In this document: in pieces, positions 7,110 to 30,471 of the stretch
Layout of the letters: each line of letters opens with the position of its first letter
How positions within the stretch are numbered: position 1 is the first letter of the stretch
Origin: Promethearchaeota archaeon
GTDB taxonomy: Archaea > Asgardarchaeota > Hermodarchaeia > Hermodarchaeales > Hermodarchaeaceae
Direction of reading: 5' to 3'
DNA length: 64,000 nt
Assembly: GCA_048939245.1 (NCBI GenBank)
Contig: JBHLPR010000003.1
Location: forward strand, 14,266-78,265
Position numbers and translations under genes: made by a program
Notes under the pieces: generated by a model
What the model saw: only the letters and a program-made list of their open reading frames with translations
Databases searched by the model: none
What the model was told of the DNA's origin: nothing

Positions 7110-7499
7110 TCATTTCAGCATTCGCTTCAAACGCTTGGTCATCAAATCGATGATTAATGTAATTGCACCTAACGGAGCATTCCGATCGGCTATCAATGCC
7201 AACACATTGGCTTCGCTGATTCTTCGTACTAGCAAATGCCCTCGTCCACACCGTAGCATCAAATCATTATATTTCCCGATTTTAAGGCTGCTCGCTGTTT
7301 GTTCGGATAGCGCACCAAGTGAAGCTATTGCTGCAGCTAATTCTAATTTCTCTACTTCCCCTTTACCCATAAGCACAATGAGCGGTAATCCGTCAGCTGT
7401 CATGACCGCAGCACTATAAATAAAGGGTTCCCGGCCCACCATTTCCTCTAAATAATTCTCTACTGTCGACATAGCTGAGGCATCGGAAGGTGATTGCAT
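7110..7499 (-). CDS. Roadblock/LC7 (MglB-like) domain protein
   Basis: 129 aa. Matches the Roadblock profile (AAVMTADGLPLIV..., LAAAIASLGAL..., GHLLVRRISEANVLALIADRNAPLG). Confidence 0.7.
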   Translation of the reverse strand: MQSPSDASAMSTVENYLEEMVGREPFIYSAAVMTADGLPLIVLMGKGEVEKLELAAAIASLGALSEQTASSLKIGKYNDLMLRCGRGHLLVRRISEANVLALIADRNAPLGAITLIIDLMTKRLKRMLK

Positions 7500-8239: not shown

Positions 8240-8629
8240 GTGCGACGGATGATTGAAAATGAGAATAAGGTGAAGCGCAAGATTCAGCTTAGACCTGTGA
8301 CAGTTAAACACCAAGAAATCTCATTACCTAAAGAAATCATCGAAAAAGCTGAAGCAGCAGAAGCTAAAGAGGCTGTTGAGGAAGAATCAAATCTATCTGC
8401 TGATCAACTCGCGATATTATTCGTCTGCCAACGGGGGCATCAATCATTCATTAGCGTTCTACAAGGGGTAAATAGCACCCGTATTCCCGTGGGTAAAAAA
8501 CCACTCAGAGAAGCTGAGGTTCGCGCCCTCTTAGATGACCTCGAAACACAGGGTTATCTAAAGAAAGCGGAAATACATGACCAACCTACCTGGGCGGCAA
8601 CTGAAAAAGCCCGAGCCTTGGAAACCTGA
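8240..8629 (+). CDS. hypothetical protein, possible DNA-binding (winged-helix-like) protein
   Basis: 129 aa, charged N-terminus. No strong motif. Confidence 0.35.
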   Translation: MRRMIENENKVKRKIQLRPVTVKHQEISLPKEIIEKAEAAEAKEAVEEESNLSADQLAILFVCQRGHQSFISVLQGVNSTRIPVGKKPLREAEVRALLDDLETQGYLKKAEIHDQPTWAATEKARALET

Positions 8630-9222: not shown

Positions 9223-9594
9223 GTGTCGAAGAATCGAGGAAAAGATGCATATGACTTACTTATGTCCCTTCTTTCTCTAAGTGAGATTCAAAGGCGAATT
9301 CTCATTTCTCTCGCCCATATCTACCCACGTGCAGCCTCAGGTAAGCAGCTCATCACTTTGATTGGATATAGTGGAAAAGCGAAATCCTTGTATCGTGGTC
9401 CCCTTGAACGTCTCGAAAAAGAAGAGCTAATTCTTGTTGATCGATTGACTCCACGTCTTCACTCAATTCGAGTAAACCATCTGCATCCTCTAATATCGTA
9501 TCTACTCGAACTCATTGAAGCTCATGGAAAGAAAACGATGGAACTTTACACAAAAGCTCTCGAGGAGGGAACATCTGTTGACCGAGAAGAATGA
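9223..9594 (+). CDS. putative winged-helix regulator (MarR/TrmB-like)
   Basis: 123 aa: RRILISLAHIYPRAASGKQLITLIGYSGKAKSLYRGPLERLEKEELI resembles a wHTH. Confidence 0.4.
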   Translation: MSKNRGKDAYDLLMSLLSLSEIQRRILISLAHIYPRAASGKQLITLIGYSGKAKSLYRGPLERLEKEELILVDRLTPRLHSIRVNHLHPLISYLLELIEAHGKKTMELYTKALEEGTSVDREE

Positions 9595-11866: not shown

Positions 11867-11944
11867 TCCGCTTCCTCACATAGTATATTTTCGTAATGAA
11901 AATAAATTGGGTGTCTGCATATCAGCCTTTTGTTTGCGTTCCAA

Positions 11945-12628
11945 CTAGTCGTCCATCAGCTTCTGTTCTCGAAGATAGGATATAATCGGAGTCAATGTTG
12001 AAAAAATTGCGATTGCCCCCTCAGCTCTAAGTTCTTTCTCGGTACGAAGTTTTGAACGCCGTGCAATACAGCGTATTCCTAGCTTATTTGCAGTCATGAT
12101 ATCGATGGTAGAATCACCAATGAATATTGTTTGTTCAGCAGGAATATCAAAATGGTTAAGAATTAATTCTAGCCCCGCAGTAGCTGGTTTCATGTGGGGC
12201 GCCTCTTCACGGGTAATTAATAAATCAACATATTCCATCAATCCAAATTTTTCCAAGAGATATTTGGCAACGGCTTTGTTGTCATTGGTTAAGATCGCAA
12301 TATTGACTTGATACTGTTGTAGGGCTTTGAGAATCTCCTTGGCACCAGAAACTAACTGGGCTTTTTTTGCTCCTTCCCATTCGAATTTCACCGCCTCTAA
12401 ATAGACCTCATCACGTAGTTTGCTTATCTCAATTGGAGTAAACCCTTTTTCACCCGCGTAGGCAAAAGCACTGCGGAGCAAGTCCTGCGTACTGTTCATT
12501 GGAAGAACGTGTGTCGGAAATTCATGTTCAATGAGTAGATCTCGAATAGCTTGTCGCATAGCCTGAAAATCAATCTCTGCCGTAACTAGAGTGCCATCTA
12601 AATCAAATACGACAAGCTCGATTGCCAT
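11945..12628 (-). CDS. HAD-superfamily hydrolase (phosphatase)
   Basis: VVFDLDGTLV motif I, a second motif around ILTND, a late GDS..D motif. Confidence 0.75.
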   Translation of the reverse strand: MAIELVVFDLDGTLVTAEIDFQAMRQAIRDLLIEHEFPTHVLPMNSTQDLLRSAFAYAGEKGFTPIEISKLRDEVYLEAVKFEWEGAKKAQLVSGAKEILKALQQYQVNIAILTNDNKAVAKYLLEKFGLMEYVDLLITREEAPHMKPATAGLELILNHFDIPAEQTIFIGDSTIDIMTANKLGIRCIARRSKLRTEKELRAEGAIAIFSTLTPIISYLREQKLMDD

Positions 12629-17188: not shown

Positions 17189-20100
17189 TTAAGCAATCTC
17201 TATGTTCATAGTAATTGTATCTGGCAATCTGTTGGTTAAGTTCAGCTCATAGATTAGAATTCCTTTTGCTTCTCGATGTTCTGCAACAACAGGCAATCGA
17301 GGCAATTCAACCTGTGCTCCCGGAATTTGAATCATCACAGCTTCAGGGTCTTGTGAAAGTGCGTCGACTCCTAAAATTTGTAGTGTTACTGTTGCAGCCA
17401 AATCCTCAGTAGTGATTAACCAGAATCCAATAGACACATTGTTTTCACTAGGCTTTTGGAGTGTGAGCCAACTTTGAATTTTATCGCCTTTGTAGGTGCT
17501 GCATAAAATTGGGGTTATTTCGTACCAAATAAGATCAGTAGGTTTTGTTGATGGACGAAGATTAGAGAAAGTGCGCGTTTTCATCTGTATTTGTCCGTCA
17601 ATGGAGATTTCGGGTTCAATTTGGAGGCTGATTCGAAACTGTTCATCAGCTAGAGTAAAACTTGTTTCAGCGTCCTCGAGTCGAAAACCAGAATCGAGGA
17701 TAGACTCGTCACCCAGTTGGAAAGCCCATTGCCGTTCTAATTGTGTCGCTAACTGGGCTTGTTCTTTCGAACCGATTTGACTTGCCTCACGAAGTAGTTC
17801 GGTTAATTGTCGTCGAACCGAATCAAGCTTGTCTTTGCCTTGAGCTAGACTTGTAAATGTCAAAGGAACTTGGGTGTTCAATATCCTTGAAGCTTGTAAC
17901 CGAGTAGCGGCTTCAGTTACGTCGATACTTTCTAAGGCTTCGATTCCCTCTTGATAGACTAGATCCCATTCTTTGAAAATAAGAATTTGTGTGGATAGCG
18001 TCGGATTTGTTCTTAGGCGTGTCTGCATTAATTGGTTGTATTGAGATAATGCCGCTTCGATTGTGATGGGGTTCTCTTCCTTTGCTGCTGCTTTGAGTGC
18101 TTTTTCAATTTGGGTTGTTGCTCTTCGTAATAGGCGGTGTTGGGCACCTGCAGATGTTGACAGAGTTGCCAGTTTTGCTGTGGCGCTTCCTGCGGCACTT
18201 AAAGCCAGAATTTCATTGTGTGTATCACCTTGGGCTGCAGCAGCTTTCGCTAGTGTCTGAGCAAGGTTTTCGCTTTTTGTCAATAGGGTTTCCCATTGTG
18301 AATCTTCTGCTGGGTGTTCATCATGAACTAGGGCGTTGATATTTCGCAGTAATAGGAATGCAAAGGGATACGTTGTTTTCGTTATCTTGTCAACGGCAGG
18401 CATAAACGTGAGGGTCTGCTCCACAAACTCTTGTGCGTCTTTTTTCAATTTATATGCGTCTTGAACATCAGTTACCTTTGATATACGCTGGAGAAGAATC
18501 CAAATTAGAAGCGATCCAGCTTTCAAAGCCTTTGCTTGATGTCGTCCTTTTACCTGTGCCACCATTGCCGTGGTTGCATAATCTTCCAATTTATCCAGAT
18601 CCTTTGTGGGAAAGGATGCACTAATTTTTCCTGAGGAATCTGGCGTTACAGTTGAAATTAAGAGCTGCAAGGCTAATTGTGCACGTATTTTGGGGTCTTT
18701 GGTTTGAAAATAGAGGTGTTCGTTAAGTTGATTACTTCGTTCCATCAGCAGGTGTGCTGACTCACTTATGGTTGCAACTGGTCTCTGTGAGAGTTGTTGG
18801 GTTATCTTCGATACAACCTCAAGATCTTGGTCGTTGATTTTGGTCGATGGGGAAATCTCTGGAATCAATTGAGTTGCGTATTTCGCTGCCGTGCTTAGAA
18901 GGCTATCCTTCTCTGCGTCAGGGGCCGCTTCAGTAAGGCGGAGTATGGCTTTTATCAATTCACGGTGAATTGCCAGGGAAGCTTCAGGTTCCGTATTAAG
19001 TTGTTGCAATTGATTAAGTGCGATTTGTTGGAATTTCACATGTAATTTTGCCAACACATAACGAGCTTCAGAGGCTTCAATTTTTGGCATTAATCTGGCG
19101 AGAAGTCTGTCCAGCTGCTTTGACATGCGAAGAATGAGATTTTGGTCTATGGGACGATCCAATAAGGGTATTGTGCTGATGAGTGTTTTGAGTGTGCCCG
19201 TGGTCGCTTCTTCAAGGATTTCTGGTGAGTCTGAAGAAATCTCGCCAGTTAAGCGGAGAATATAGTCAAGCTGTTTGACAGCTCTGGCTATATCATCAAG
19301 TGCCCGATAATTGAATACCGCGGTGCGTGCAAATCGTAGACTTCGTAATAGATCATCTCCGAACGCTTTATCCGATTTTCCCTGTGCCATTTCAAACCAG
19401 AGTGTGCTTGCCCGTGTTGCCAATTTCGCGGTTGAGTAGGCATCTCGAAGTTCAATTGCTGCGTTCATTGCAGTCGTTAGATGCTTAAGCTGTGACTGAC
19501 GCAGTTTCTGGGTTGACATGGTTTGGTGTAGGCGATCTTTCAAATGCTGTTCGCTGATGTCCAAAACCTTCAGATCATCAATCGATTGAAGCGCTGTTAC
19601 GATGATCTTTCCTGTTTCTCTCCCTCTGTCCTCCATTATCTTATGAAGGGCTTTCCAATTTCTTGTGAGTTTACGTAATAGGGCAATTTGTTTTGTGGGG
19701 TCATCCTCTTGTGTGAATTCATTGATTGTGTCTTTGGCTTTGGCTGTCTGGTAGGCAAGAAGTGAGTTTCGCTGAAACTTTTCAGCAAATTCAATGATTT
19801 GCTCTAATTCCGCTTTCATTGTGGTTTCAGGAATAATGAGAAGGCGGTGTAATAGTATTTGTAAGACTGTTTCTATTGTTGAGGCATTCGTATCTTCTAG
19901 GGTTTCCAGAATCGTGGCTATTGCTGAAGCTTCAAGCGCAATTAACTCTTTTCGGAAATCTCCGTCTGGGACAATCCCTAAAAGCCAATGGCTTTTCCAT
20001 AGAAGTTCTACGGGTTCGACTTTGCGTTTAGCTGTGATATCTGCCAAAGTGCTTTCTAGGTGGTGTCGACCAAAATAGCGCGTTTCAAGGGCCTCATGAA

Positions 20101-20284
20101 TCGTAAGATCCGTATTCTTTGCTAACGTGACTGCATCTTGAAGTTTCTTTTCATAAAGAAAGATTTGGCTTAAATTATTGATTCCCCGCTTGTCAAGTTT
20201 CTTTTGAAGTTTTGTAGGAAGGCTTGATAAATCTGATAAAGAAATGGAAAGGTCAATGCCAACCATTTTATTCACCACTTTCAC
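17189..20284 (-). CDS. large (1031 aa) predominantly alpha-helical protein of unknown function
   Basis: Uninterrupted 3.1-kb ORF, no TM segments, mostly helical/coiled sequence with a beta-rich C-terminal 200 aa. No recognisable catalytic motif. Confidence 0.5.
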   Translation of the reverse strand: MKVVNKMVGIDLSISLSDLSSLPTKLQKKLDKRGINNLSQIFLYEKKLQDAVTLAKNTDLTIHEALETRYFGRHHLESTLADITAKRKVEPVELLWKSHWLLGIVPDGDFRKELIALEASAIATILETLEDTNASTIETVLQILLHRLLIIPETTMKAELEQIIEFAEKFQRNSLLAYQTAKAKDTINEFTQEDDPTKQIALLRKLTRNWKALHKIMEDRGRETGKIIVTALQSIDDLKVLDISEQHLKDRLHQTMSTQKLRQSQLKHLTTAMNAAIELRDAYSTAKLATRASTLWFEMAQGKSDKAFGDDLLRSLRFARTAVFNYRALDDIARAVKQLDYILRLTGEISSDSPEILEEATTGTLKTLISTIPLLDRPIDQNLILRMSKQLDRLLARLMPKIEASEARYVLAKLHVKFQQIALNQLQQLNTEPEASLAIHRELIKAILRLTEAAPDAEKDSLLSTAAKYATQLIPEISPSTKINDQDLEVVSKITQQLSQRPVATISESAHLLMERSNQLNEHLYFQTKDPKIRAQLALQLLISTVTPDSSGKISASFPTKDLDKLEDYATTAMVAQVKGRHQAKALKAGSLLIWILLQRISKVTDVQDAYKLKKDAQEFVEQTLTFMPAVDKITKTTYPFAFLLLRNINALVHDEHPAEDSQWETLLTKSENLAQTLAKAAAAQGDTHNEILALSAAGSATAKLATLSTSAGAQHRLLRRATTQIEKALKAAAKEENPITIEAALSQYNQLMQTRLRTNPTLSTQILIFKEWDLVYQEGIEALESIDVTEAATRLQASRILNTQVPLTFTSLAQGKDKLDSVRRQLTELLREASQIGSKEQAQLATQLERQWAFQLGDESILDSGFRLEDAETSFTLADEQFRISLQIEPEISIDGQIQMKTRTFSNLRPSTKPTDLIWYEITPILCSTYKGDKIQSWLTLQKPSENNVSIGFWLITTEDLAATVTLQILGVDALSQDPEAVMIQIPGAQVELPRLPVVAEHREAKGILIYELNLTNRLPDTITMNIEIA

Positions 20285-20306
20285 TAGTTAGGGGCGCAAA
20301 ACAAGA

Positions 20307-20406
20307 ATAAGAAATTTTGCAGAATGGCATTACTCGCCCTTCACTCTCAAAGATTCAATACGTTAGTTAAGCCCCGTTACAAGTTCCTCAACTGCCTCAT
20401 CTGGAA
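20307..20406 (-). pseudogene. orphan copy of the metG 3' end (about 100 bp, about 75% identical to 27381-27480)
   Basis: aagaaattttgcagaatggcattactcgcccttcactctcaaagattcaatacgttagttaag...caactgcctcatctgg aligns with the real metG terminus aagaaattttactgaagggcgttacttagcttttgctctcgcagattcaatacgttggttgag...caactgcctcatctga. Confidence 0.65.
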
Positions 20407-20467
20407 TCCTTGAAATCATTACTATAGGTTGGGGAAATTCTTATCCTAGGTAAACTGGATCCTTCTT

Positions 20468-20932
20468 TCACCTCTCCTCAGTTATTTTAGTAGAGGTGAG
20501 CTGCTCACTTTGATGAATACCTTCACCTACCCAATAATTGCCCTGTTTCACGATAGTTTTTCCTTCTCTGTGTTCCCAGTATAGTTGAGTCAAGAGGAGG
20601 GGCCAGGACCCAAGAACAAGGACACCCAAAATGAAAGTGACGAATCCGGCAATTAGGGTTGCTACTATCCCGAGTCCAACAGGGAAGTACAAATGGAGCC
20701 ACGATATTCCATACTGAATTAGGAAAGTCTGGATTAACACCAAAGGTATCAAGATTAACAAGTGCCACCATCGAATATGTCTGATTTTTTCACGGGAAGG
20801 AATCTCTGCAGGAAGCCTAGCAGACCAACCTAATTCATAGTGTACTTGAGGTATGCCACTCAGTAAGAAGCTAAGCGAGAGACTAATCAACCCTGGAACG
20901 CTGATTAAGAAAAACCTCCAAGGGGTCGTCAC
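20468..20932 (-). CDS. small membrane protein (4 TM helices)
   Basis: 154 aa hydrophobic ORF between metG-fragment copy A and the 21040-21295 repeat. Confidence 0.4.
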   Translation of the reverse strand: MTTPWRFFLISVPGLISLSLSFLLSGIPQVHYELGWSARLPAEIPSREKIRHIRWWHLLILIPLVLIQTFLIQYGISWLHLYFPVGLGIVATLIAGFVTFILGVLVLGSWPLLLTQLYWEHREGKTIVKQGNYWVGEGIHQSEQLTSTKITEER

Positions 20933-21039
20933 TGCAAGCCATATTAATAGAAAAGCAATTGGAGTCCAACCAAGAGTAATGGTTAGGCGTCGATTGCGAA
21001 GGACATTCCACCGTGAAATCGAAGCACTAACGGATATGG

Positions 21040-21295
21040 TCTATTCCCTCTATCTGGACTAGGTGATTCCAAGACCAAAAATATTACTAAATCAGAAGCT
21101 AACTTGATTCTTGTATAGCCATCTAGTGCATTTACCGAAGATGTAAGATCCGTTATCCATCGAAGTAGAATGGTGGTTTTTTATCATAGCGCTGCATAAT
21201 GAAAGGTTGTTTGAACAACAGGCTAAGAAATTTTGCGGAATGGCGTTTCTTGTCTTTTTCTCTCAATGATTCAATATTTTAGTAGGTTTGCTTTA
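21040..21295. repeat. copy 1 of a roughly 200-bp direct repeat (21040-21245) fused to a second orphan metG 3'-end fragment (about 21227-21295)
   Basis: ctattccctctatctggactaggtgattccaagaccaaaaatattac...gcataatgaaaggttgtttgaacaacaggctaagaaatttt matches 27180-27395. It is followed by gcggaatggcgtttcttgtctttttctctcaatgattcaatatttt, which resembles the metG terminus. Confidence 0.7.
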
Positions 21296-21739
21296 GCAAA
21301 AACGAAAAGAAGGGAAGAATGAAAAACGAGGAAGTTGATGATAATTCACTTTTGGAGGGAAATTCGGTGTATTGGAAACGTGTGCCTGTTTGGGTTCCAG
21401 GCGCGTTGATCACAATTATTGTATGGCTTGTTGTACTTTACATCATTCTCACTTTTTTTTCCAATTGCGCCCGAACAGCAACCCATACTTGTATTAGTCA
21501 CCGTAATGATATTCCTGATATGTTCGGGGTCAGTGCTCTATTACTGGCTTCAACGGCTTTTTGGGACCCGATACAATCCCGACATTTAGAGTAGGAGCTT
21601 TAGTAACCTTTTTGGTCTCGGATTCACCTAATCCAATTAGAGGGAAAAAACAAATTCTAGCAAAGAATCTCGGACGAACTATAGTGAACCTATCTACTTC
21701 CTTATCTTCATTGTATCACCACTACTCCTTGTCTTTCTT

Positions 21740-22081
21740 ATGCTGGCCACTTTGATAGCTAACGCCTTGTGGATCATTATCTATGCGATACCCTATGTTA
21801 TCGTAATGCCGCTTTGGTTTTACATCGATACCCGAATACGCCGTAAATTACTAGGAGACGGAGCAAAATACGCTGTTTTATTGGTTGTCCATGGCATATC
21901 CATTATTTTACTAACTTTCAATTGGATGCTGGCGACACCTGAACCTCTGCCGTTCTGGCCTCTTTTCGTGTGGGGGTTTTGGGTGGTTTTCATCTTATTC
22001 ATTAGTTCTGTCATTTGTGAGCGGTTCTTAAAACCCAAGTTTCGTTCATTGTATGAGCAATCAGAACCAGGTCATTTCTAG
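21740..22081 (+). CDS. small membrane protein, paralog (inverted orientation) of 26782-27231
   Basis: C-terminal CERFLKPKFRSLY versus CERFLKPKLESGG. The upstream short ORF 21561-21755 shares ...SDSPNPIRGKKQ... with the paralog N-terminus ...ESPSPIRGNRV..., suggesting a frameshifted or diverged duplicate. Confidence 0.4.
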   Translation: MLATLIANALWIIIYAIPYVIVMPLWFYIDTRIRRKLLGDGAKYAVLLVVHGISIILLTFNWMLATPEPLPFWPLFVWGFWVVFILFISSVICERFLKPKFRSLYEQSEPGHF

Positions 22082-22098
22082 TTTTTTTCCACCGTAGA

Positions 22099-22935
22099 TT
22101 AAGTTTTTCGCTTTAAGAGAATAACAATAACAATAACTACTATGCTAATGCCAATACTGATTGCTACTATCTTAAGAGTCTGGTCAGATAGAGCGCCCTC
22201 AATGCTATCACTAACAACAATATTATCAATCGAGGAATTCCCCTGAAAAGAAACAAAACTGAATGTTTCCGATGTGGTGACTCTATCATCCGTTATCTCG
22301 ATAACTAATTCTGAATTGAGATTGATTTGAAACTGGCCTGGTAAATCTCGTATGATTTCAAAATGAAATACCTCATTAGCTCTTGTGATGATAGGGTGTC
22401 TAGCTAATATGTAACGCTCCAATCCTTGGAATAACTCAAAGTAGATCTCACCATTAACAAATGAGTCTAAAATTAATGCATAACCATCCATATTAGGAAC
22501 CTGGGATACTCCAGATAAATTGTAATTGTTTTCTAAATCTGTATATACAAAATTAACAGAATCGAAGGAAACATTACTACTGGATACATGCCAATCAAAA
22601 CTCCAAGTACCATATGCCGTACTACTATTATGGATAGCTCTTCTTAGATGGGTCAGGTCTCCGTGGTATCCAACATTAGGCCAGTAGTAATAGACATCTT
22701 CAGCTGTCAGCGTTCCATTCTCAATAGTGAATCCATGATCAACTTCACAAAATACATCATCAACTAGTTCGTATCCCTGGAGAATCCAATCGTCCAAGGA
22801 ATCTATATTATCAACCTCAAAATCTTCACTCCAAAATTGTCCTGCAGATACTGTGATAGGAAAGAGAGTGGAAAGGACTAAGAATAATACAGTGGATAAA
22901 ACAAGTATTCGAAATGAGATAGATCTATGAACCAA
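22099..22935 (-). CDS. secreted, C-terminally membrane-anchored surface protein (paralog A)
   Basis: 278 aa. N-terminal signal/TM, C-terminal TM anchor IVAISIGISIVVIVIVILLKRKT. Shares blocks with 22975-23796 (WSEDF.V...LDDW.LQGYE..D..F..VDHGFTI.NG.LTAEDVY, AYGTWSFDW.VS, FVSFQGNSSIDNIVVSDS). Confidence 0.5.
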   Translation of the reverse strand: MVHRSISFRILVLSTVLFLVLSTLFPITVSAGQFWSEDFEVDNIDSLDDWILQGYELVDDVFCEVDHGFTIENGTLTAEDVYYYWPNVGYHGDLTHLRRAIHNSSTAYGTWSFDWHVSSSNVSFDSVNFVYTDLENNYNLSGVSQVPNMDGYALILDSFVNGEIYFELFQGLERYILARHPIITRANEVFHFEIIRDLPGQFQINLNSELVIEITDDRVTTSETFSFVSFQGNSSIDNIVVSDSIEGALSDQTLKIVAISIGISIVVIVIVILLKRKT

Positions 22936-22974
22936 AGTTCCACCACAATTTCTCTCTGTTCCTTTAATCTAATC

Positions 22975-23796
22975 TTATTTCTTCCATTTAAAAAAGATAA
23001 CAATAGCTACAACAATGACACCTATTCCAATCCCGATTACAATAAGTTCAATAGTTAGTCCAGATTGAGTAACATCAACACTATCACTAACGACTATATT
23101 GTCAATCGAGGAGTTCCCTTGAAATGACACAAAATTGAATTTCTCACAAGAGGTGACATCATTATCTATCACATTGAGTACTAGTTGTGTATCAAAATAC
23201 ACATTAAACTCTCCTTCCAAAGAGCGTGTTATATCTATATGATGTTGGCCAATTAAATCAGAAGGAAAATCATGTCTAACAAGGATAACGCCGTGTGTTA
23301 CAGCGAACTTCTCAATGTACATCTCATCATTCATAACTGTGTCCAAAATAAGAGTATATCCTGTCATTGCATATGATGTGAATTCTCCTGTTAGATTGTA
23401 TTCATTTCGCAAGTCAGTAAACATGAACTCCACTCCATCATAACCATTCTGACTTCCACTAACACGCCAATCAAAACTCCAAGTACCATATGCCACGGTA
23501 CTATTATGAATCGCTCTTCTCACTTGGGACATGTAGATTGACCATGGAACATACACGTCCTCTGCAGTCAACTCTCCATTCACAATGGTGAAACCATGAT
23601 CCACTTGGTAGAACGTAGAATCAATCATTTCATATCCTTGAAGGACCCAATCGTCCAACTCTTCAACAGGAGAAACCGCGAAGTCTTCACTCCACACAAT
23701 TGCAGCAGATACTTGCATTTGATTTAAAGGAATTGCGATTAAGATTGTAACTGTAATCACAGATATTATTCTAAGCAACTGGAATAGTGTAGACAT
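22975..23796 (-). CDS. secreted, C-terminally membrane-anchored surface protein (paralog B)
   Basis: 273 aa, same architecture and conserved blocks as 22099-22935. Tandem duplicates. Confidence 0.5.
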   Translation of the reverse strand: MSTLFQLLRIISVITVTILIAIPLNQMQVSAAIVWSEDFAVSPVEELDDWVLQGYEMIDSTFYQVDHGFTIVNGELTAEDVYVPWSIYMSQVRRAIHNSTVAYGTWSFDWRVSGSQNGYDGVEFMFTDLRNEYNLTGEFTSYAMTGYTLILDTVMNDEMYIEKFAVTHGVILVRHDFPSDLIGQHHIDITRSLEGEFNVYFDTQLVLNVIDNDVTSCEKFNFVSFQGNSSIDNIVVSDSVDVTQSGLTIELIVIGIGIGVIVVAIVIFFKWKK

Positions 23797-23949
23797 GAAT
23801 CCACCTCCCTCTATCTTCTATTTAAAAGGAACTTCAACCCTTCGCAATGCCTTAGTGAATAAATCTGGATCTTGTCTCACGAGAGACATGTTACGTTGCC
23901 TGTAATGATACGGCTTGAAGGTTCACTAGTAGGTTATTACGAGAAGATA

Positions 23950-23988
23950 GCATAATGAGAGGTTGTTTGAACAACAGGCTAAGAAATT
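23950..23988. repeat. third partial copy of the gcataatga-aggttgtttgaacaacaggctaagaaatt element
   Basis: gcataatgagaggttgtttgaacaacaggctaagaaatt matches 21196-21234 and 27346-27389. No metG fragment follows here. Confidence 0.6.
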
Positions 23989-24290
23989 ATACAAATACAA
24001 CTCGTAAACGAAAAGATTGGTACGCCTAGATAGACGCTATGGAAGTAATCGAAACCAATAAGGATGGTAGAATCGTCGATGAACTAATTTATGGACTGCA
24101 GAGCAATGATGAGGACACTAAATCATGTATTCCAACCTTACTAGCAAGTCAAGGCGATCAGTGACCAATCCAAATCATTGGCCATCTGCTTGAGAACTTC
24201 CTGCTTCCTTAAAGGGAAGGTGCTCAAATAAATACCAAGTTGAATGGAAAAGCGTAAATCCGAACACGCTGGTTCAGATTTAGGCTCAAT

Positions 24291-26615
24291 TTGACTAGTC
24301 AGAAGCAGGATTCATTACTTGCTAGGCTGCTCAATTATATCTTAGTGAATTTTTATTCCGAACGTGAGGAATTTTTGAGCAATGTGATAAGTATGATTCT
24401 GCCTGTGAGTCGTAGGCGTGTATGGACTACAGCACTACTACTTTTTTTTCTATTCCCAGTGCCAGCTTATGTAAGACATCAATGGACATACAATTCTTCT
24501 TCCGGTCTAAGTAATAATCTCACAGTACCAATAATACCTAATCTTCTTAATTATGAAATCAACATAGTCTTCCTAGGCATCAATGAAACAAGAATAGATC
24601 AAGATTCGTTGTTGGACCAGCTACCAAAATGGTATGCCCCGGTCGATGGCATGTGGTGGCGCCAGGAGTTTGACATGAACTTCACTCTAGCATACAGCCT
24701 TAGCTTTACCGAACAAGTTCAAATAGATGATTATCGAATGTTCTTGCACCAGAACTCTGTAGAGGATAGGTCACCGTTCTTCATACAGCCTGAACATCCA
24801 ATGGCTAAATACATTCACTCGGATATGGTTGAGTCATACTTAGCTGAGAACGTGATCGACAAATCGTCAGCAACTCTTGTAATCATTGATACCTACTCCT
24901 TTGATCCGACTGGACATGTTCCCTATTACTACAATGCGACCTATAACGAACTGGATGCAGAACTTGAGGGATGGGTCATCAACCCACTTCCTTGGGCTTC
25001 AACTTACCAGATAGCTGGAGGTGGTGAGAACTCAAGACTACTCTGGCTAGATCTTTCAGCAGGTCCGACTGTCTATCATTCGACCTTCGATTCGAGTACG
25101 GGAGGTGTAGAAGAGATCTTGCCCATCTGGACCTACGAAGAACTAGTAAATCCTGTGGAACAACTAACAGAAGATCTTGTAAAATACATTACTCAAGCAG
25201 TCGAATGCCGGTTCTCGCCATCAACTTACCTTCGAGCCACTATTGGGGTGCCTCTAATCCATTCACCCACCACTGAAATTGCAATGGAAGTTCTTCTTGT
25301 AGATCTGGCCAATACTAATTTCAGATTTGAGGAAAGACTCAAGCTCGACTATATAGCATCCGAGTACGAAAGAGTGAATCCTTTCGTGGAATGGACATAT
25401 AGTGTAACGGATTGGGATTGGGAATCAGATCTGAGTTTTCTCTCAGTCCTTGAAGCTTCGCAAGATGATCAAGCGATGACCTATGACCCGAGGATTCTAG
25501 TGGAGTTTTTTGACCTAAAATACATGAGCCTCTTCAATTCGAGTTCGCATAATAGATTAGTATTACCAATCTTCTTGTTGACACTTCCTGTAGGTTGGAA
25601 CTTCAATCCTGAGTGGGGTGGAATGGCTCAATGTATCGATGGCGAGTTTGCCTACATTTATGGGAAGCAAAGTCTGGACTTAGTTGATCCTAGCTACATC
25701 GATCAGGCGATCATCCCGCTTGAAGGTTTGCAGATTGAGAGTGGAGACTCCTTCAATATTTCGGGATACTTGGGGGATTTTATTGGTTCTATCGATTTTT
25801 CGATGAATGTTCTTAACAGCAGGATTAGTGTCTATTTTCTAGATGAATATGGTTACAATCAATATGAGCAGGCTTTACCATTTGTGGATCTTTTAAATCA
25901 CTCATTTGAGAATGTCTCTGCCGGGTCGGGCATGGTGGTTTCGAACTTCGAATGCACGATTTATGGAAGATATTATCTGGTGATCGAGAATAACGAAAAC
26001 GAGACAGCAACCGTTGATATCACATTGAATATAGAGGTAGACCATTGCTATGGGTACACTTGGAAAATCATGCATGAGATTGGACATGCTTTGGGGTTAA
26101 ACCATCCCCATGATGCATACTCTTGGGGTAACTATAACCACCCGGCTGCAAATGTAGGGGTTTACCTAAATTGGCTTTGGGATATGTCGTATTCTCAGAT
26201 GAATTACGCGAACCAGGTTCCAACGATTTCCTTGATGGATATTGACACGCTTCAAAGAGAGTCCATAACAAGATATTGGGCAGATGCTGTGAACATCTGG
26301 AATGATATTGTTAATAATTCTACAATCAAATATGGTGGAGTTTCATCCATCATAGAAATGCATCTAGTAAACGCTTCCCAGCATTTCAATCAGAGCGTGG
26401 ACTATTACTCAAATACTAACAGTCTAGACAATTACCAAAATTCATTACATGAGGTTTTTAGCATGTGGAAGGAGCTTAGGTTGGCCTTAGCTGAACTAGC
26501 CTTCTATTCCCTGTTAGAGATTCAAAACATTCTGTTTATTGTTTTTGTGGTGGCTGTCATCATCTTAATTGTTGTGATCTATGTAGTAATGCGAAGAAGG
26601 AGAATGAGGGAGTAG
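24291..26615 (+). CDS. large membrane-anchored extracellular protein with a metzincin zinc-protease motif
   Basis: 774 aa. Probable signal peptide at the internal MILPVSRRRVWTTALLLFFLFPVPAYV. HEIGHALGLNHPHD (HExxHxxGxxH) near residue 590. C-terminal TM anchor ILFIVFVVAVIILIVVIYVV followed by MRRRRMRE. Confidence 0.6.
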   Translation: MTSQKQDSLLARLLNYILVNFYSEREEFLSNVISMILPVSRRRVWTTALLLFFLFPVPAYVRHQWTYNSSSGLSNNLTVPIIPNLLNYEINIVFLGINETRIDQDSLLDQLPKWYAPVDGMWWRQEFDMNFTLAYSLSFTEQVQIDDYRMFLHQNSVEDRSPFFIQPEHPMAKYIHSDMVESYLAENVIDKSSATLVIIDTYSFDPTGHVPYYYNATYNELDAELEGWVINPLPWASTYQIAGGGENSRLLWLDLSAGPTVYHSTFDSSTGGVEEILPIWTYEELVNPVEQLTEDLVKYITQAVECRFSPSTYLRATIGVPLIHSPTTEIAMEVLLVDLANTNFRFEERLKLDYIASEYERVNPFVEWTYSVTDWDWESDLSFLSVLEASQDDQAMTYDPRILVEFFDLKYMSLFNSSSHNRLVLPIFLLTLPVGWNFNPEWGGMAQCIDGEFAYIYGKQSLDLVDPSYIDQAIIPLEGLQIESGDSFNISGYLGDFIGSIDFSMNVLNSRISVYFLDEYGYNQYEQALPFVDLLNHSFENVSAGSGMVVSNFECTIYGRYYLVIENNENETATVDITLNIEVDHCYGYTWKIMHEIGHALGLNHPHDAYSWGNYNHPAANVGVYLNWLWDMSYSQMNYANQVPTISLMDIDTLQRESITRYWADAVNIWNDIVNNSTIKYGGVSSIIEMHLVNASQHFNQSVDYYSNTNSLDNYQNSLHEVFSMWKELRLALAELAFYSLLEIQNILFIVFVVAVIILIVVIYVVMRRRRMRE

Positions 26616-26781
26616 TTTCTACGTGTTGAAGATGCAAATTTTGGGTGTAGAAGGAAGTCTTTGAGGAGTTGTGCGTCATTCATCGCACGTTGGAACATAC
26701 TCACTGATTGGTTAAAGTTTATCGTCCTGTCGACTTTTCTACGGTTTATTTCAGATAAGAAACACAACTGCGACTTTGCTC

Positions 26782-27231
26782 CTATCCACCTGATTCGAGT
26801 TTTGGTTTTAAGAATCGCTCACAAAGCATGGAAGTCAAGGTTCCAAGGAACATGGCTGTGAATACAAATGAGAAACTAGCTAGGAAAAAATAGGGCGTCC
26901 AAAATGGACCAAACGACGTCATTAAGAACACCGTAATGAAACTGAATATTAAAGCCACCACAAGTTTCACTCCTCCTCTAACGAGCCCGGGTTTTATACG
27001 AGCATCAACGTAACACCAGATTTGCTTTACGATAACCCATGGTAGGGCAAATGCAATGGCAAACAATAAATTAGATAAGAATGCAAATACAAGAATTCCA
27101 CCGAAAATCAGTGGTGAGACGACAAAGCTAATGAAAAATGGGTTCACTGAAGTCTCTCCGCGACTCATTTTCAGACATACTCTATTCCCTCTAATTGGAC
27201 TAGGTGATTCCAAGACCAAAAATATTACCAA
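26782..27231 (-). CDS. small membrane protein (paralog of 21740-22081); true start probably the ATG near 27165
   Basis: Hydrophobic 4-TM protein. The annotated TTG start lies inside the 27180-27395 direct repeat. In-frame ATG (MSRGETSVNPFF...) sits about 66 bp downstream. Confidence 0.4.
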   Translation of the reverse strand: MVIFLVLESPSPIRGNRVCLKMSRGETSVNPFFISFVVSPLIFGGILVFAFLSNLLFAIAFALPWVIVKQIWCYVDARIKPGLVRGGVKLVVALIFSFITVFLMTSFGPFWTPYFFLASFSFVFTAMFLGTLTSMLCERFLKPKLESGG

Positions 27232-27395
27232 ATGAAAGTCAACACGATTCTTCTATAACCATTTGGGCTTCAAACCAGCGCATTTACAGAAGATGTAAGA
27301 TCCATTAGCCTTCGAAGCAAAATCGTGGATTTTTTTGGTCATAGTATTGCATAATGAGGTATGGTTTAAACAACAGGCTAAGAAATTTTACTGAA
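27180..27395. repeat. copy 2 of the roughly 200-bp direct repeat, abutting the stop codon of the real metG
   Basis: About 80% identical to 21040-21245 over roughly 205 bp. Confidence 0.7.
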
Positions 27396-27400
27396 GGGCG

Positions 27401-29125
27401 TTACTTAGCTTTTGCTCTCGCAGATTCAATACGTTGGTTGAGTCCAGTTGCTAATTTTTCAACTGCCTCATCTGATATCTTCGCAAACAGCACTTTAGGC
27501 TTAGATAATTCAGTGCCAGGACTAAGTGCTTCTAAACAGCTATCCACCTTCACATCATGCACACTTCCGGATTGGCTTAATTGTTTCCAAATTTTTTCTG
27601 CGGTGGCTGGTATTGCTGGTTCAATTAGTATGGCAATCGCTTTCAGCAGTTGTAAGCATTGATACAAATCGTTTTGACAGCGATCCGCATCCTCTTTGAT
27701 GGTTTTCCATGGTTCGTTTTGTTGAAAGAAAGTGTTTCCGAATGAGGCAAGGTGCATAGCAGCGTCAACAGCTTCTTTGAACTTAAAATCTTGAACAGCT
27801 TCATCAATCTCCTCTATTGTCTTTTCAATTTGCTCAGTAATTAGAGAGGAGATTGCACCTTCAGGGATTTTTTTTAAATTCCTATGAATAAACAGGAGTA
27901 CGCGGTATGCATAGTTTCCTAAAATTCCAACAAGTTCATTGTTCAATTTGGATTGGAATTCATTCCAAACGAAATCTAAATCTCTTGTATGGCCTGTATA
28001 GGAGAGGATGTAATAGCGCACAGCATCGAGATTAATTCCCTGCTTAATGAAATCTTCTTCAATATCAATTACAAAACCGCGGCTCTTTGAAAGGCCGTGG
28101 CCTTCAACTTTAACCATGCCACTGGCCACAATTGCATATGCTGTGTTATAGTTAACACCTTTTAGAATGGCAGGCCAGAAGACAGCATGATGATAGACGA
28201 TGTCTGCACCGATGAAGTTAATGATTTTTCCATCGCGAATCCAATAGTCCTTCCAATCAGCTCCGGTTTGTCGTGCCCACTCTTCTGTAAAGGATATGTA
28301 ACCTGCATAATTTTCAGCCCATACGTAGAGGACCAGATCCTCGTCACCTGGATATGGAATTCCCCATTTCAAATCTCGTGAAATACCCCAATCCTTTAGT
28401 CCTTGCCGAATCCATCCCAGGGCGTAATTCCGCGCCAAGGCTGTTCCTTTTAATTGTTCATTAAATTTGATGAGAAAATCAGTAAACATTGGTAATTTAA
28501 AGAAGTGGTGTCGGGTTTTTCGCTTAATTGCCGGTGATCCGCAGGTGACACATCGGGGATTGATCAATTGATCAGCATCGAGATAGCGTTGGCAGCCTTG
28601 ATCGCATTCATCACCACGCGCTAGAGCTCCACAATAAGGACAGGTTCCAATAAGAAAGCGGTCTGCAAGAAAGGTCTGGCAATTCTTACAGTAGGGTAAT
28701 GCTACCTCCCGGGCTTCAACATATCCGTTCTTCTCAAGAGTGCGGATTATAGTTTGTACGCGTTTGTAATGGTAAGGCGCTTCTGTTGTCCCGTACAAAT
28801 CAACGCCAATGTCCATTTTTTCAAAGATGCTTTTAAAATGTTCATGATATTTGTCTACTAGTTCTTTCGGAGTTATTCCTGCTTGTTCAGCAGCCAGTTC
28901 GATTGGGGCACCATGGGTGTCGGACCCGCATACAAATCTCACATCGTAGCCAAATCGTTTTAGGTACCTTACGTAGGCATCACCAGGAATATAGGTACGC
29001 AAGTGACCAATATGGGCCGTTCCATTCGAATAGGGAAGCCCACACGTTACTAAGATTTTATCAGTCTTGGTTAGGGACATATGGAATCCCTCCTTAGCAT
29101 TTTGGTGAGAGCATTCTTTGACCAA
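27401..29125 (-). CDS. metG: methionyl-tRNA synthetase
   Basis: 574 aa. Class I HIGH motif (AHIGHLRTYIPGDAYVRY), zinc knuckle CPYCG...C..C, KMSKS-type GLSKSRG, anticodon-binding helical C-domain. Confidence 0.9.
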   Translation of the reverse strand: MVKECSHQNAKEGFHMSLTKTDKILVTCGLPYSNGTAHIGHLRTYIPGDAYVRYLKRFGYDVRFVCGSDTHGAPIELAAEQAGITPKELVDKYHEHFKSIFEKMDIGVDLYGTTEAPYHYKRVQTIIRTLEKNGYVEAREVALPYCKNCQTFLADRFLIGTCPYCGALARGDECDQGCQRYLDADQLINPRCVTCGSPAIKRKTRHHFFKLPMFTDFLIKFNEQLKGTALARNYALGWIRQGLKDWGISRDLKWGIPYPGDEDLVLYVWAENYAGYISFTEEWARQTGADWKDYWIRDGKIINFIGADIVYHHAVFWPAILKGVNYNTAYAIVASGMVKVEGHGLSKSRGFVIDIEEDFIKQGINLDAVRYYILSYTGHTRDLDFVWNEFQSKLNNELVGILGNYAYRVLLFIHRNLKKIPEGAISSLITEQIEKTIEEIDEAVQDFKFKEAVDAAMHLASFGNTFFQQNEPWKTIKEDADRCQNDLYQCLQLLKAIAILIEPAIPATAEKIWKQLSQSGSVHDVKVDSCLEALSPGTELSKPKVLFAKISDEAVEKLATGLNQRIESARAKAK

Positions 29126-29883: not shown

Positions 29884-30471
29884 GTGCGGTCAATCTCACA
29901 AAATCCTGAAAATTCCAACTCCCCGAATGTGGTAGCTGCAGAGAAAGCAGGCTTCGTTGTGAAAGTAATTATAGTGGGGGATTGGGGTGTGGGAAAAACG
30001 AGTCTTATTCGAAGATTTGCTGAAAACAAGTTCGACCATGACTACAAACCCAGCATCGGCGTTAACATCGTCACCAAAGTTGTCGATGTAGCTGGAAGAA
30101 AATTAAAACTGCAACTATTCGATACAGGTGGACAAGAACGCTTTCAATCCCTTCGACAAAGGTATTACAAAGGGGCAAACGCAGTCATATTCGTCTTTGA
30201 CATAACAAGGCCTTCATCAGCATCAGCGATTGAATCCAAATGGTTAGATGAGGTGAAATCAATTCTCGGTGAAGATTTTGTACGGGTGGTTTTAGCGAAT
30301 AAAACGGATTTAGAATCTGGCCGAGCCGTATCTGAATATGCCGCTCAACAAGCCACTGATCGAATTCAAGGCAAGTATTATGAAACCAGTGCCTTAGATG
30401 GCCGGAATGTCACCGAGGCATTTTCTGAATTAGCTGCCGAATTAATGGAAAAACTCTTTCCGGAGGTATAA
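29884..30471 (+). CDS. Ras-superfamily small GTPase (Rab/Ras-like)
   Basis: G1 GDWGVGKTSL, switch II/G3 DTGGQERF, G4 NKTDL, G5 ETSAL. About 170-aa G-domain. N-terminal about 25 aa uncertain (true start may be internal). Confidence 0.8.
   Translation: MRSISQNPENSNSPNVVAAEKAGFVVKVIIVGDWGVGKTSLIRRFAENKFDHDYKPSIGVNIVTKVVDVAGRKLKLQLFDTGGQERFQSLRQRYYKGANAVIFVFDITRPSSASAIESKWLDEVKSILGEDFVRVVLANKTDLESGRAVSEYAAQQATDRIQGKYYETSALDGRNVTEAFSELAAELMEKLFPEV

Follow-up and report, generated by a model that had tools for sequence, protein, structure and literature searches.

Between the methionyl-tRNA synthetase gene (metG) and a conserved gene of 1031 amino acids (aa), a 64,000-nucleotide (nt) stretch of a Promethearchaeota archaeon genome (contig JBHLPR010000003.1; the whole 64-kb stretch is called the window below) holds 7.1 kb of additional DNA. 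This island carries diverged direct repeats, two orphan copies of the metG 3′ end and an 11-nt junction motif. The same site in related genomes is empty or differently filled, two units of the island, which we call module M and block Y, also occur as discrete units at other places, and no recombinase gene was found in cis. On balance we favour, with some reserve, an accretion of small integrase-less cassettes, similar to cis-mobilizable elements (CIMEs), at a docking site behind metG, followed by rearrangement. Bacteria and other archaea provide known cases of this pattern, which has not been described for these Asgard cassettes; to our knowledge, very few mobile elements of Asgard archaea have been characterised.

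The region from 20.0 to 27.8 kb was queried by BLASTN against the whole window, and the loci compared with it (L001, L002 and so on) come from Asgard genomes. All repeats listed in an earlier sequence-only reading of this DNA were recovered. The longest (27181-27431 against 21040-21276, 77.8% over 252 nt, E 3e-53) includes the real metG end and, in its other copy, orphan 2. The real end also matches the region of orphan 3 (27379-27499 against 20308-20428, 75.2% over 121 nt, E 2e-17), the two orphan regions match each other (21224-21283 against 20308-20367, 81.7% over 60 nt, E 9e-10), and a shorter stretch is almost identical between 23950-23988 and 21194-21232 (97.4% over 39 nt). The three copies of the metG 3′ end, one real and two orphan, and the direct repeats of about 200 bp with a third copy of a 40-bp core, as that reading had described them, are therefore real features. 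It had missed an inverted copy (21599-21723 against 27232-27110, 73.6% over 125 nt) and a pair of tandem paralogous genes (22104-22852 against 22979-23713, 64.5%). Within the window, all these repeats are confined to the island. An assembly artefact was rejected, as identity between the repeat copies is no more than 75-82% and the flanks of every copy are unique.

The metG 3′ end is the template of the orphan copies. Their limits had to be revised: metG stops at 27401, orphan 3 is longer than had been noted (about 120 nt in the self-comparison) and orphan 2 is more decayed. The orphans had also been said to resemble each other more than the real terminus, which is true locally (gccattcYgc, TTGAGAG) but not over the 67 nt common to all three ends, where the pairwise comparisons give 49, 52 and 49 identities and the three are about equidistant. 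With its in-frame TAA and an indel, orphan 3 reads as a pseudo-fragment.

Exact matches to the junction motif, AWAATTTCTTA, number four in the whole window, where 0.17 would be expected, and all four are on the metG strand at junctions or segment starts (positions 27389, 23990, 21234 and 20318). The first starts 11 nt past the metG stop. The first three run on into the rest of a 44-nt core, and the fourth into the promoter of the 1031-aa gene, where the 11-mer doubles as a TATA-like box about 25-50 nt ahead of the start. Homology of the window with L001 and L012 resumes at 20319 (L001 4353), at AWAATTTCTTATTG...CCCCTA..TAGTG, which is the native 1031 promoter region. Behind metG the 11-mer is also present in L005, L012 and L024, and ahead of the 1031 homologue in L001, L012 and L023. 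At the other loci all exact 11-mers, except that at L021 13539, lie at a module or core boundary, and both module ends carry one in L012 (2949/3911), L023 (314/905) and L024 (953/1924). A generic promoter motif was considered and rejected, with no further exact copy in the window and one-mismatch matches at chance level.

What had been taken for an anonymous attachment (att) arm, the 200-bp repeat, is the conserved upstream region (U) of a two-gene membrane-protein operon, consisting of a gene for a small membrane protein (smp) and a 105-aa gene; it is the promoter and 5′ region of a mobile two-gene module. U is built of the 44-nt core (AWAATTTCTTAGCCTGTTGTTCAAACAACCTCTCATTATGC..), a spacer of about 150 nt and a 52-nt leader that ends with GAGGGA before the start codon. 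It is about 230 nt long and non-coding, and is seen in the window (27171-27389 and 21020-21234) and in L012 (2949-3160), L016 (9792-10005), L020 (4713-4925), L021 (9750-9975), L023 (314-530) and L024 (953-1166). Over eight copies from seven genomes the mean column identity is 81%. U2 consists of core 2, the spacer, leader 2 (21039-21091) and about 20 nt more. With an nhmmer profile of the core (E 9e-14 for the U1 core), significant copies are found only at the module and core places described here, and degenerate cores in L005 (~2778), L021 (~10340) and L030 (~3790), which are not significant with the profile, were dropped. The solo core of the window, core 4, is identical at 44/44 positions to the core behind metG in L004/L005 and 97% identical to core 2; L024 likewise has a solo core after its module.

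RNAalifold gives the eight U copies a weak fold only (-10.0 kcal/mol; 4 of 42 pairs with a compensatory change), and U is for this reason treated as promoter and 5′ untranslated region (UTR). The weak fold includes a possible pairing of the core (UGUUGU, UCUC) with the GAGGGAACA ribosome-binding region. No Rfam family was matched in the window, so that U as a known RNA or riboswitch is not supported, and ARAGORN finds no tRNA in the window and hence no tRNA target. The core has some likeness to the T-arm of a tRNA, but too weak a one to be used. Between the window and L024, U and smp are 87.7% identical, as opposed to 71.0% for metG, and the module is therefore more alike than the gene next to it. 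U1 and U2 share 82% with each other and 84% with the copies in L020 and L024; because they are no closer mutually than to copies from other genomes, a recent duplication of U in situ is unlikely.

Module M, of about 1 kb, comprises the 44-nt core, the spacer of about 150 nt, the 52-nt leader, smp and the 105-aa gene, followed in some copies by a region x and a metG-like arm of about 150 nt. The clearest comparison is between L020 4710-5691 and L024 950-1934, which are 90.7% identical over 985 nt. They begin to match 3 nt ahead of the left 11-mer and cease to match where the right one ends. Beyond these limits the flanks are unrelated: L020 has an acetyltransferase gene and one of 177 aa, and L024 has metG and a second core. 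Since the two match from 11-mer to 11-mer within unrelated flanks, M is a discrete unit found in different places. The mismatches in L020 (ATAAGATC followed by TTA on the left, TTAATTTC followed by CTA on the right) fit a crossover near position 8/9 of the 11-mer. The module is 11-mer-bounded without a metG arm in L020, L023, the second core of L024 and core 4 of the window, and variants without smp are present in L021 (Hodarchaeota) and L023. In all, units of ~1 kb with these ends are known from at least five contexts. The short right ends of the module in L012, L020, L021, L023 and L024 (..GTTTGAAT..TTTGCC, then the 11-mer) may be deleted metG remnants, a reading for which the alignment gives no robust support.

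The metG-like arm is also found away from metG. L016-L019 carry core, U, smp156, a 104-aa gene, x and the arm, ending AAAGTTTCT, between unrelated genes and with no metG within 10 kb; the neighbours of these and the other copies were judged from precomputed Pfam lists of genes at most 10 kb away. Aligned with the L016 arm, orphan 3 takes in about 150 nt of the metG coding part, its stop codon and 22 nt beyond it. Together, x and orphan 3 (20515-20310) are 78% identical to L016 10788-10993 over 206 nt, and the two arms have the same 5′ boundary (GGATCCA..) and several derived substitutions in common. Orphan 3 is 75% identical to the L016 arm and 65% to the metG end of its own window, which indicates that the arm travels with the module and is not a fresh copy of the resident gene. 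It may have begun as an attP arm, the gene end having at one time been replaced by it, or have been captured when an element excised imprecisely. The x region carries GTGAGCaGCTCAC and CACCTCT..16 nt..AGAGGTG, and may serve as a terminator or bind a protein.

Across the compared genomes, the space between metG and the 1031-aa gene is a hotspot of insertion. The window's metG is 71-77% identical in nt sequence to metG of L001, L002, L012 and L024, and its 1031-aa gene 65-73% to the homologues in L001, L002 and L012; Pfam gives the latter no family. Judging by its metG relatives the window belongs among the Asgard archaea, the closest named relative being Ca. Hermodarchaeota (L001, Ca. Hermodarchaeota YT1_028, 83% aa identity in metG). 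An empty site, in which metG is followed by the 1031-aa gene, had been predicted and is found in L002 (gap of 346 bp) and L006 (about 150 bp). A single 0.96-kb module with smp141 and the 105-aa gene occupies the site in L012-L015, while L024/L025 have metG, the module and a second core, where the contig ends. L004/L005 have a solo core right behind metG and then an unrelated ABC-transporter locus. The insert of L001 is of another kind (2.5 kb, a PHO4 transporter and an acyltransferase gene), and in L008, a relative of L001, these genes have shrunk to a remnant of about 330 bp. Comparing L008 1173-1509 with L001 1805-4362, the PHO4 transporter gene is absent and the acyltransferase gene is a 180-nt remnant. 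The L008 remnant thus shows that the interval gains and loses genes also in lineages without the smp module. Occupancy differs between genomes, and the arrangement is not the invariant one that would have spoken against integration.

Judged from its matches elsewhere, block Y is a second, independent mobile case within the island. L026 9927-11772 matches the block at 94.5% identity and L030 3862-4854 at 94.7%, and these two are 99.1% identical to each other. All three copies share the left edge, T followed by CCAGATTTATTC, in three different contexts: 77 nt after core 4 in the window, 93 nt after a tRNA-Met gene in L030 (the only tRNA association seen), and within the 3′ end of a DUF167/YggU-like gene in L026, where the block supplies the last 16 codons (PDLFTKALRKVEVPFK, then stop). 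A candidate for the original end of that gene lies about 2.0 kb downstream in L026, as a 36-aa ORF (open reading frame) ending ...NPELVIAALNA and stop; spliced back, it gives the YggU-like C-terminus ...IENMTPELVIAALNA and stop. The Pfam model stops before the YggU tail in L026, and cannot tell the two C-termini apart. The yggU-type edge occurs at L026 9927-9978 and L030 3862-3912, with the candidate original end in L026 at about 11925-11965, and because the same block edge supplies a YggU-like end in L026, the window's 23819-23869 is read as an orphan yggU 3′ end. The right edge of the block, 22025, lies in smp113 and encodes its last 13 codons. The GC content of block Y is 0.365, the lowest value, against 0.399 for the island (20319-27400) and 0.439 for the remainder of the window; in L026 the block has 0.378 and the rest of the locus 0.445. 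Phage 21 and e14, which are bacterial, integrase-encoding prophages, enter E. coli icd by a crossover inside the gene, bringing a diverged copy of its last 50-165 nt and leaving an orphan 3′ end. Block Y in yggU of L026 looks like such an integration.

For the metG site, the founding unit would be the ~1-kb module M. Modules would join the chromosome at the 11-mer, 11 nt past the metG stop, each insertion leaving a copy of the 11-mer at both ends, and a metG-like arm, where the incoming DNA carries one, would end on the far side as an orphan, attR-like metG 3′ end. A circle of the order arm, 11-mer, core, ... and x, crossing over at the 11-mer with a chromosome of the order metG, 11-mer and 1031 promoter, would yield segment 3 (21234 to 20319; U2, smp154, x and orphan 3) in one step. 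Segment 1 (27389 to 23991) holds U1, smp149 and an inverted 774-aa protease-like gene, and segment 2 (23990 to 21235) the solo core, block Y, an inverted smp copy and orphan 2, both presumably scrambled by later inversions, deletions and a nested insertion. The map becomes no simpler if the segment from one smp copy to the other is inverted back. We infer that the joining is site-specific recombination at the 11-mer and core, catalysed in trans, probably by a tyrosine recombinase that the host or a helper element encodes. The sequence-only reading had proposed arrays of attL, element and attR at metG. Its discrete, repeat-bounded units and varied occupancy stand, but the island is a mosaic with a yggU block, an inverted smp copy and fusions. 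The idea that elements insert into the metG 3′ end and reconstitute it needs changing: the junction lies just past the stop, and there is no sign that metG itself was cut and restored. The alternative offered there, that recombination shuffles a surface-protein cassette, is partly true and compatible with accretion.

The earlier remark that no integrase is present holds for the 55 window ORFs scanned with Pfam (54 of the 59 ORFs of at least 120 aa, and the island ORFs of 91 and 113 aa; the scan left out 7110-7499, 8240-8629, 9223-9594 and two ORFs nested antisense in larger genes), none of which matches an integrase, transposase or recombinase. It also holds for the Pfam lists beside the related copies, with one exception: L027/L028 have, at their far edge, a gene of the IS605 OrfB/TnpB type, which is separated by about 9.5 kb from a single coreless gene of the block Y family (62% identical). 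Searches of IMG/VR (viral_contigs) with the core pattern and with the smp, 105-aa, 273-aa and 774-aa proteins yielded no relatives, and neither PLSDB nor INPHARED contains a match to the module DNA, for which reason a viral or plasmid origin was rejected. The island thus has direct repeats around the insert, one of them overlapping or abutting the metG 3′ end, an empty counterpart in relatives and the same ends elsewhere (M in L020, L024 and L016; Y in L026 and L030), as an att-flanked element should, but no recombinase gene inside. Like a CIME it keeps att sites without recombination or transfer genes, but it does not adjoin a functional element, all three window segments being recombinase-free, and no parent with shared att sites was found in IMG/VR, PLSDB or INPHARED.

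Several observations weigh against accretion by site-specific recombination. Neither a recombinase nor a circular form or full-length parent element was found in IMG/VR, PLSDB, INPHARED or the scanned ORFs. With only 75-82% identity between the repeats, the events are old, and identity of the att sites cannot serve as proof. Segments 1 and 2 are mosaic, with internal boundaries (22025, 23869 and 26767) that do not fall at an 11-mer, the insert of L001 has no 11-mer on its metG side, and the exact predicted pre-insertion site (metG stop, 11 nt, 11-mer, 1031 promoter) is present in none of the compared genomes. For block Y, the candidate attR in L026 is only weakly similar. L021, and possibly L016, keep apparent remnants of the 1031 promoter and may be rearranged derivatives of the metG locus instead of independent insertions, and the 11-mer and core could be conserved simply as the operon promoter.

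Three other explanations were weighed, each of which fails to account for at least one of three observations, namely the 11-mer-bounded copies at non-metG loci, the arm shared with L016, and orphan 3 abutting the 1031 promoter. The island could have formed by homologous single (Campbell-type) crossover in the metG 3′ end through an arm of about 170 nt, with no site-specific recombinase. Circular or linear DNA of relatives, arriving by transformation, vesicles or cell fusion or as excised circles, would then duplicate the arm, and the 11-mer would mark the end of the homology between donor and recipient. What is duplicated is indeed an entire block of homology, made up of about 120-150 nt of metG with the stop and 22 nt more, and not a short core, the scanned ORFs include no recombinase, and variable contents between conserved flanking core genes are the usual signature of exchange by flanking homology. 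We nevertheless regard this route as unlikely, since M is bounded by 11-mers and lacks the metG arm in four of the cases given above, the L020 and L016 copies are at loci without metG homology, and arms of 75% identity are poor substrates, though they may have been more alike at the time of the event.

More doubtful is a purely local origin, in which an ancestral locus of metG, U, smp, 105-aa gene and 1031-aa gene underwent segmental duplications starting inside metG, deletions, an inversion between its smp copies and an illegitimate insertion of DNA from elsewhere, and in which the core and 11-mer are a promoter (TATA box and B recognition element with a palindromic operator). It would explain why smp stands right behind metG in L012-L015 and L024/L025, the 81% conservation of U, as expected of a functional promoter and 5′ UTR, the TATA-box-like position of the 11-mer about 25-50 nt before the 1031 start, and the mosaic island with its inverted smp copy and gene fusions. 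Tandem copying would, however, place U behind every metG fragment, whereas orphan 3 adjoins the 1031 promoter; U1 and U2 are as diverged mutually as from the copies of other genomes; the arm has the same boundary at the non-metG locus of L016; a 985-nt module has exact 11-mer-to-11-mer ends in unrelated contexts; and an 11-mer with no other exact copy in 64 kb is no general promoter motif. We give least credence to a decay of large integrative elements with a tyrosine integrase (a provirus, a plasmid or one resembling an integrative and conjugative element, ICE) once seated at the metG 3′ end, of which cargo and att scars would be left and whose small modules would never have moved by themselves. 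This is the classical origin of CIMEs (PMC7563491), archaeal arrays in the 3′-distal parts of protein genes are known from passages of PMC6563490, and the attL-attR-like topology with orphan 3′ ends fits. Neither the island nor the surroundings of about ten related copies contain a backbone gene or pseudogene, however, independent decay would hardly produce one ~1-kb unit, ending at the same points, in five or more contexts, and viral, plasmid or phage relatives are lacking in IMG/VR, PLSDB and INPHARED.

Accretion of small cassettes, which we continue to favour, was also compared with known classes of mobile element. An integron, or a cluster of attC sites lacking an integron-integrase (CALIN), was rejected: the 55 scanned ORFs include no intI or tyrosine recombinase domain, inspection of the core and junctions revealed no GTTRRRY/RYYYAAC pair, single-stranded DNA folds are weak (z +0.9 to -2.0), and the segments hold 1-4 genes on both strands and begin with a conserved 230-nt upstream region. 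For a Tn7-like element, no tnsA/B/C or tniQ domains were found by Pfam in the same ORFs. Tn7 does not produce a 100-nt duplication of a gene end. The gene nrdD is reportedly a Tn7-like attachment site in one Promethearchaeota genome; the window has nrdD at 3133-5478 (-), and Tn7 genes were not seen there. The text of a survey of Asgard Tn7 elements (10.1101/2025.07.27.667033) contains no mention of metG, methionyl or 'tRNA synthetase'. A casposon was discarded, as Pfam shows no Cas1 or PolB domains and the sole inverted repeat is the pair of smp gene copies. Xer-dependent modules (integrative mobile elements exploiting Xer, IMEXs; Acinetobacter pdif modules) are recombinase-free and are moved by a host tyrosine recombinase at 28-bp dif-like sites with inverted 11-bp arms and a 6-bp spacer. 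Unlike these, the 11-mer of the metG locus with its flanks (TTTGCC-ATAATTTCTTA-GCCTGTT) is by inspection not palindromic, and the locus is not known to be a dif site, so this class was also set aside.

The closest parallels are with two described groups. Decayed CIMEs without an integrase are stacked at gene 3′ ends in streptococci, the most decayed furthest from the target gene (PMC7563491); in the window, too, the smallest segment is furthest from metG. The streptococcal CIMEs at the 3′ ends of fda, rpsI, rpmG and rplL are small cargo units (1.2-13 kb) with att-type direct repeats and, like the units described here, have no recombination genes of their own and form a tandem stack beside the 3′ end of a housekeeping gene (PMC7563491). 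They differ in being bacterial and demonstrably derived from ICEs or integrative and mobilizable elements, whose integrases act on them and with which they stand in tandem, whereas the metG units have an Asgard host, no known parent element or integrase, a junction just past the stop and a conserved 230-nt promoter and leader. For archaea, passages of PMC6563490 document integrated elements in 3′-distal regions of protein genes, with tandem re-use of one site. The archaeal host, the duplicated 3′ end of a protein gene as target and the comparison of empty with occupied sites are shared with our case. Unlike the metG units, which are 1-3 kb long and recombinase-free with arms of about 150 nt, the elements treated in those passages encode an integrase or casposase and measure 5-100 kb, with att sites or target site duplications of median 17 bp; metG is not among the targets that the passages name.

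Integrons and CALINs, including archaeal ones (10.1101/2022.02.06.479319), resemble the island as arrays of small cassettes with a site-like sequence each and often no integrase (CALIN). Here, by contrast, there is no intI, attC or GTTRRRY core, and the cassettes have their own promoters, 1-3 genes and mixed orientation. A bolder proposal than accretion at metG is that of an integron-like but unrelated Asgard cassette system, in which membrane- and surface-protein cassettes of about 1-3 kb, each with the 44-nt core (11-mer crossover and nested palindrome) and sometimes a borrowed gene 3′ end, would be moved in trans by a host or helper recombinase and dock behind metG, in yggU and near tRNA-Met; we put it forward tentatively, with a minor chance of being correct. 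If it were so, cell-surface genes would be exchanged between lineages in modular, promoter-equipped form. Should the accretion reading hold, surface and membrane genes would move between Asgard lineages as tiny, promoter-equipped, integrase-less cassettes that dock behind housekeeping genes. Asgard gene exchange bears on models of eukaryogenesis. The 44-nt core, the 11-mer junction and the orphan metG and yggU 3′ ends form a searchable signature and offer a route to the recombinase and to recent gene flow, on which the 99%-identical copies of block Y in different contexts also bear. Orphan gene ends and the 230-nt leader could, moreover, mislead annotation: smp154, smp113 and the 36-aa ORF of L026 are probably fusion or remnant ORFs.

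Table 1 Features of the island and its two anchor genes (window coordinates)
Feature	Coordinates	Strand	Description
1031-aa conserved gene	17189..20284	-	function not assigned; other anchor of the hotspot
J4 11-mer	20308..20318	-	also TATA-like box of the native 1031-gene promoter
Orphan 3	20319..20440	-	metG-like arm with in-frame stop; directly adjoins the 1031-gene promoter
x region	20441..20515	-	palindrome-rich, non-coding; precedes the metG-like arm; partly conserved in L016 10788-10845
smp154	20468..20932	-	different small membrane-protein ORF; takes the place of smp and the 105-aa gene in segment 3
J3 11-mer (21224-21234) and U2	21020..21234	-	segment 3 start; nhmmer E 1.3e-15
Orphan 2	21235..21330	-	decayed copy of the metG 3′ end, ~70-95 nt; right end of the metG-proximal part of the island
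ORF91	21319..21594	+	putative small membrane-protein ORF between orphan 2 and leader 3; from the ORF list
Inverted partial module	21599..22081	+	leader 3 (21599-21651) and smp113 (ORF 21740-22081)
Block Y	22025..23869	-	orphan yggU-like 3′ end, 273-aa gene, 278-aa paralogue, 75-nt 3′ flank
278-aa paralogue	22099..22935	-	in block Y
273-aa gene	22975..23796	-	in block Y; predicted lectin-fold surface protein
Orphan DUF167/YggU-like 3′ end	23819..23869	-	51 nt, edge of block Y
Core 4 (solo core), including J2 (23980-23990)	23947..23990	-	segment 2 start; nhmmer E 6e-16
774-aa membrane-anchored protein	24291..26615	+	HExxH zinc-protease motif; opposite strand; island cargo
smp149/128	26782..27168	-	small multi-pass membrane protein; first gene of M; 105-aa partner missing here
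U1	27171..27389	-	smp-module upstream region: 44-nt core (27346-27389), spacer, 52-nt leader (27181-27232)
J1 (AAAATTTCTTA)	27379..27389	-	11 nt past the metG stop; segment 1 start
metG (methionyl-tRNA synthetase)	27401..29125	-	conserved anchor; Pfam tRNA-synt_1g E 4.5e-136, Anticodon_3

The cargo of the island was characterised from its translations and from one structural model (Table 1). Homologues of smp149 are 67-84% identical and always stand behind a U region; the identical protein is P0001, from the 81.9-kb source contig. Its paralogue smp113 lacks the ATG of smp149 (AAAGAATCT compared with AATGAGTCG), has its C-terminus fused to the flank of block Y and is probably, as said, a remnant or fusion. 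The 774-aa protein has a weak Pfam match to Peptidase_M66 (E 1.5e-4, 21.3 bits against a cut-off of 20.6), and its translation shows the motif HEIGHALGLNH and a C-terminal hydrophobic helix. For the 273-aa protein, AlphaFold predicts (pLDDT, the predicted local distance difference test score, 85.7) an N-terminal helix, a concanavalin-A-like β-sandwich and a C-terminal transmembrane helix, and the best PDB matches of the model are GH16 glucanases, CBM66 and L-type lectins; as modelled, it is a transmembrane-anchored protein with a concanavalin-A-like lectin/glucanase fold. The 273/278-aa family has no Pfam model, and 53 matches to it are in metagenome-assembled genomes labelled Promethearchaeota, Hodarchaeales, Heimdallarchaeota and Thorarchaeota. 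From the fold modelled for the 273-aa protein and the membrane proteins encoded by smp and the 774-aa gene, the cargo is taken to be cell-surface and membrane proteins, in line with the surface-protein cargo suggested by the sequence-only reading. The smp154 product has a weak DUF1673 match, below threshold, and the gene shows no nt similarity to the coding regions of the module. ORF91 has neither a Pfam match nor an nt match in any compared locus.

The rest of the window is housekeeping DNA, with nrdD, AFOR, M42 peptidase, Ras-like GTPase, arginase, HMG-CoA reductase and other genes. The metG gene of L002 (669-2358) is split into two overlapping ORFs (669-1613 and 1402-2358), by a frameshift or an assembly error. 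A gene for a Ras-family small GTPase (29884-30471, +), which is typical of Asgard genomes, is found in the window at a distance of about 760 bp upstream from metG.

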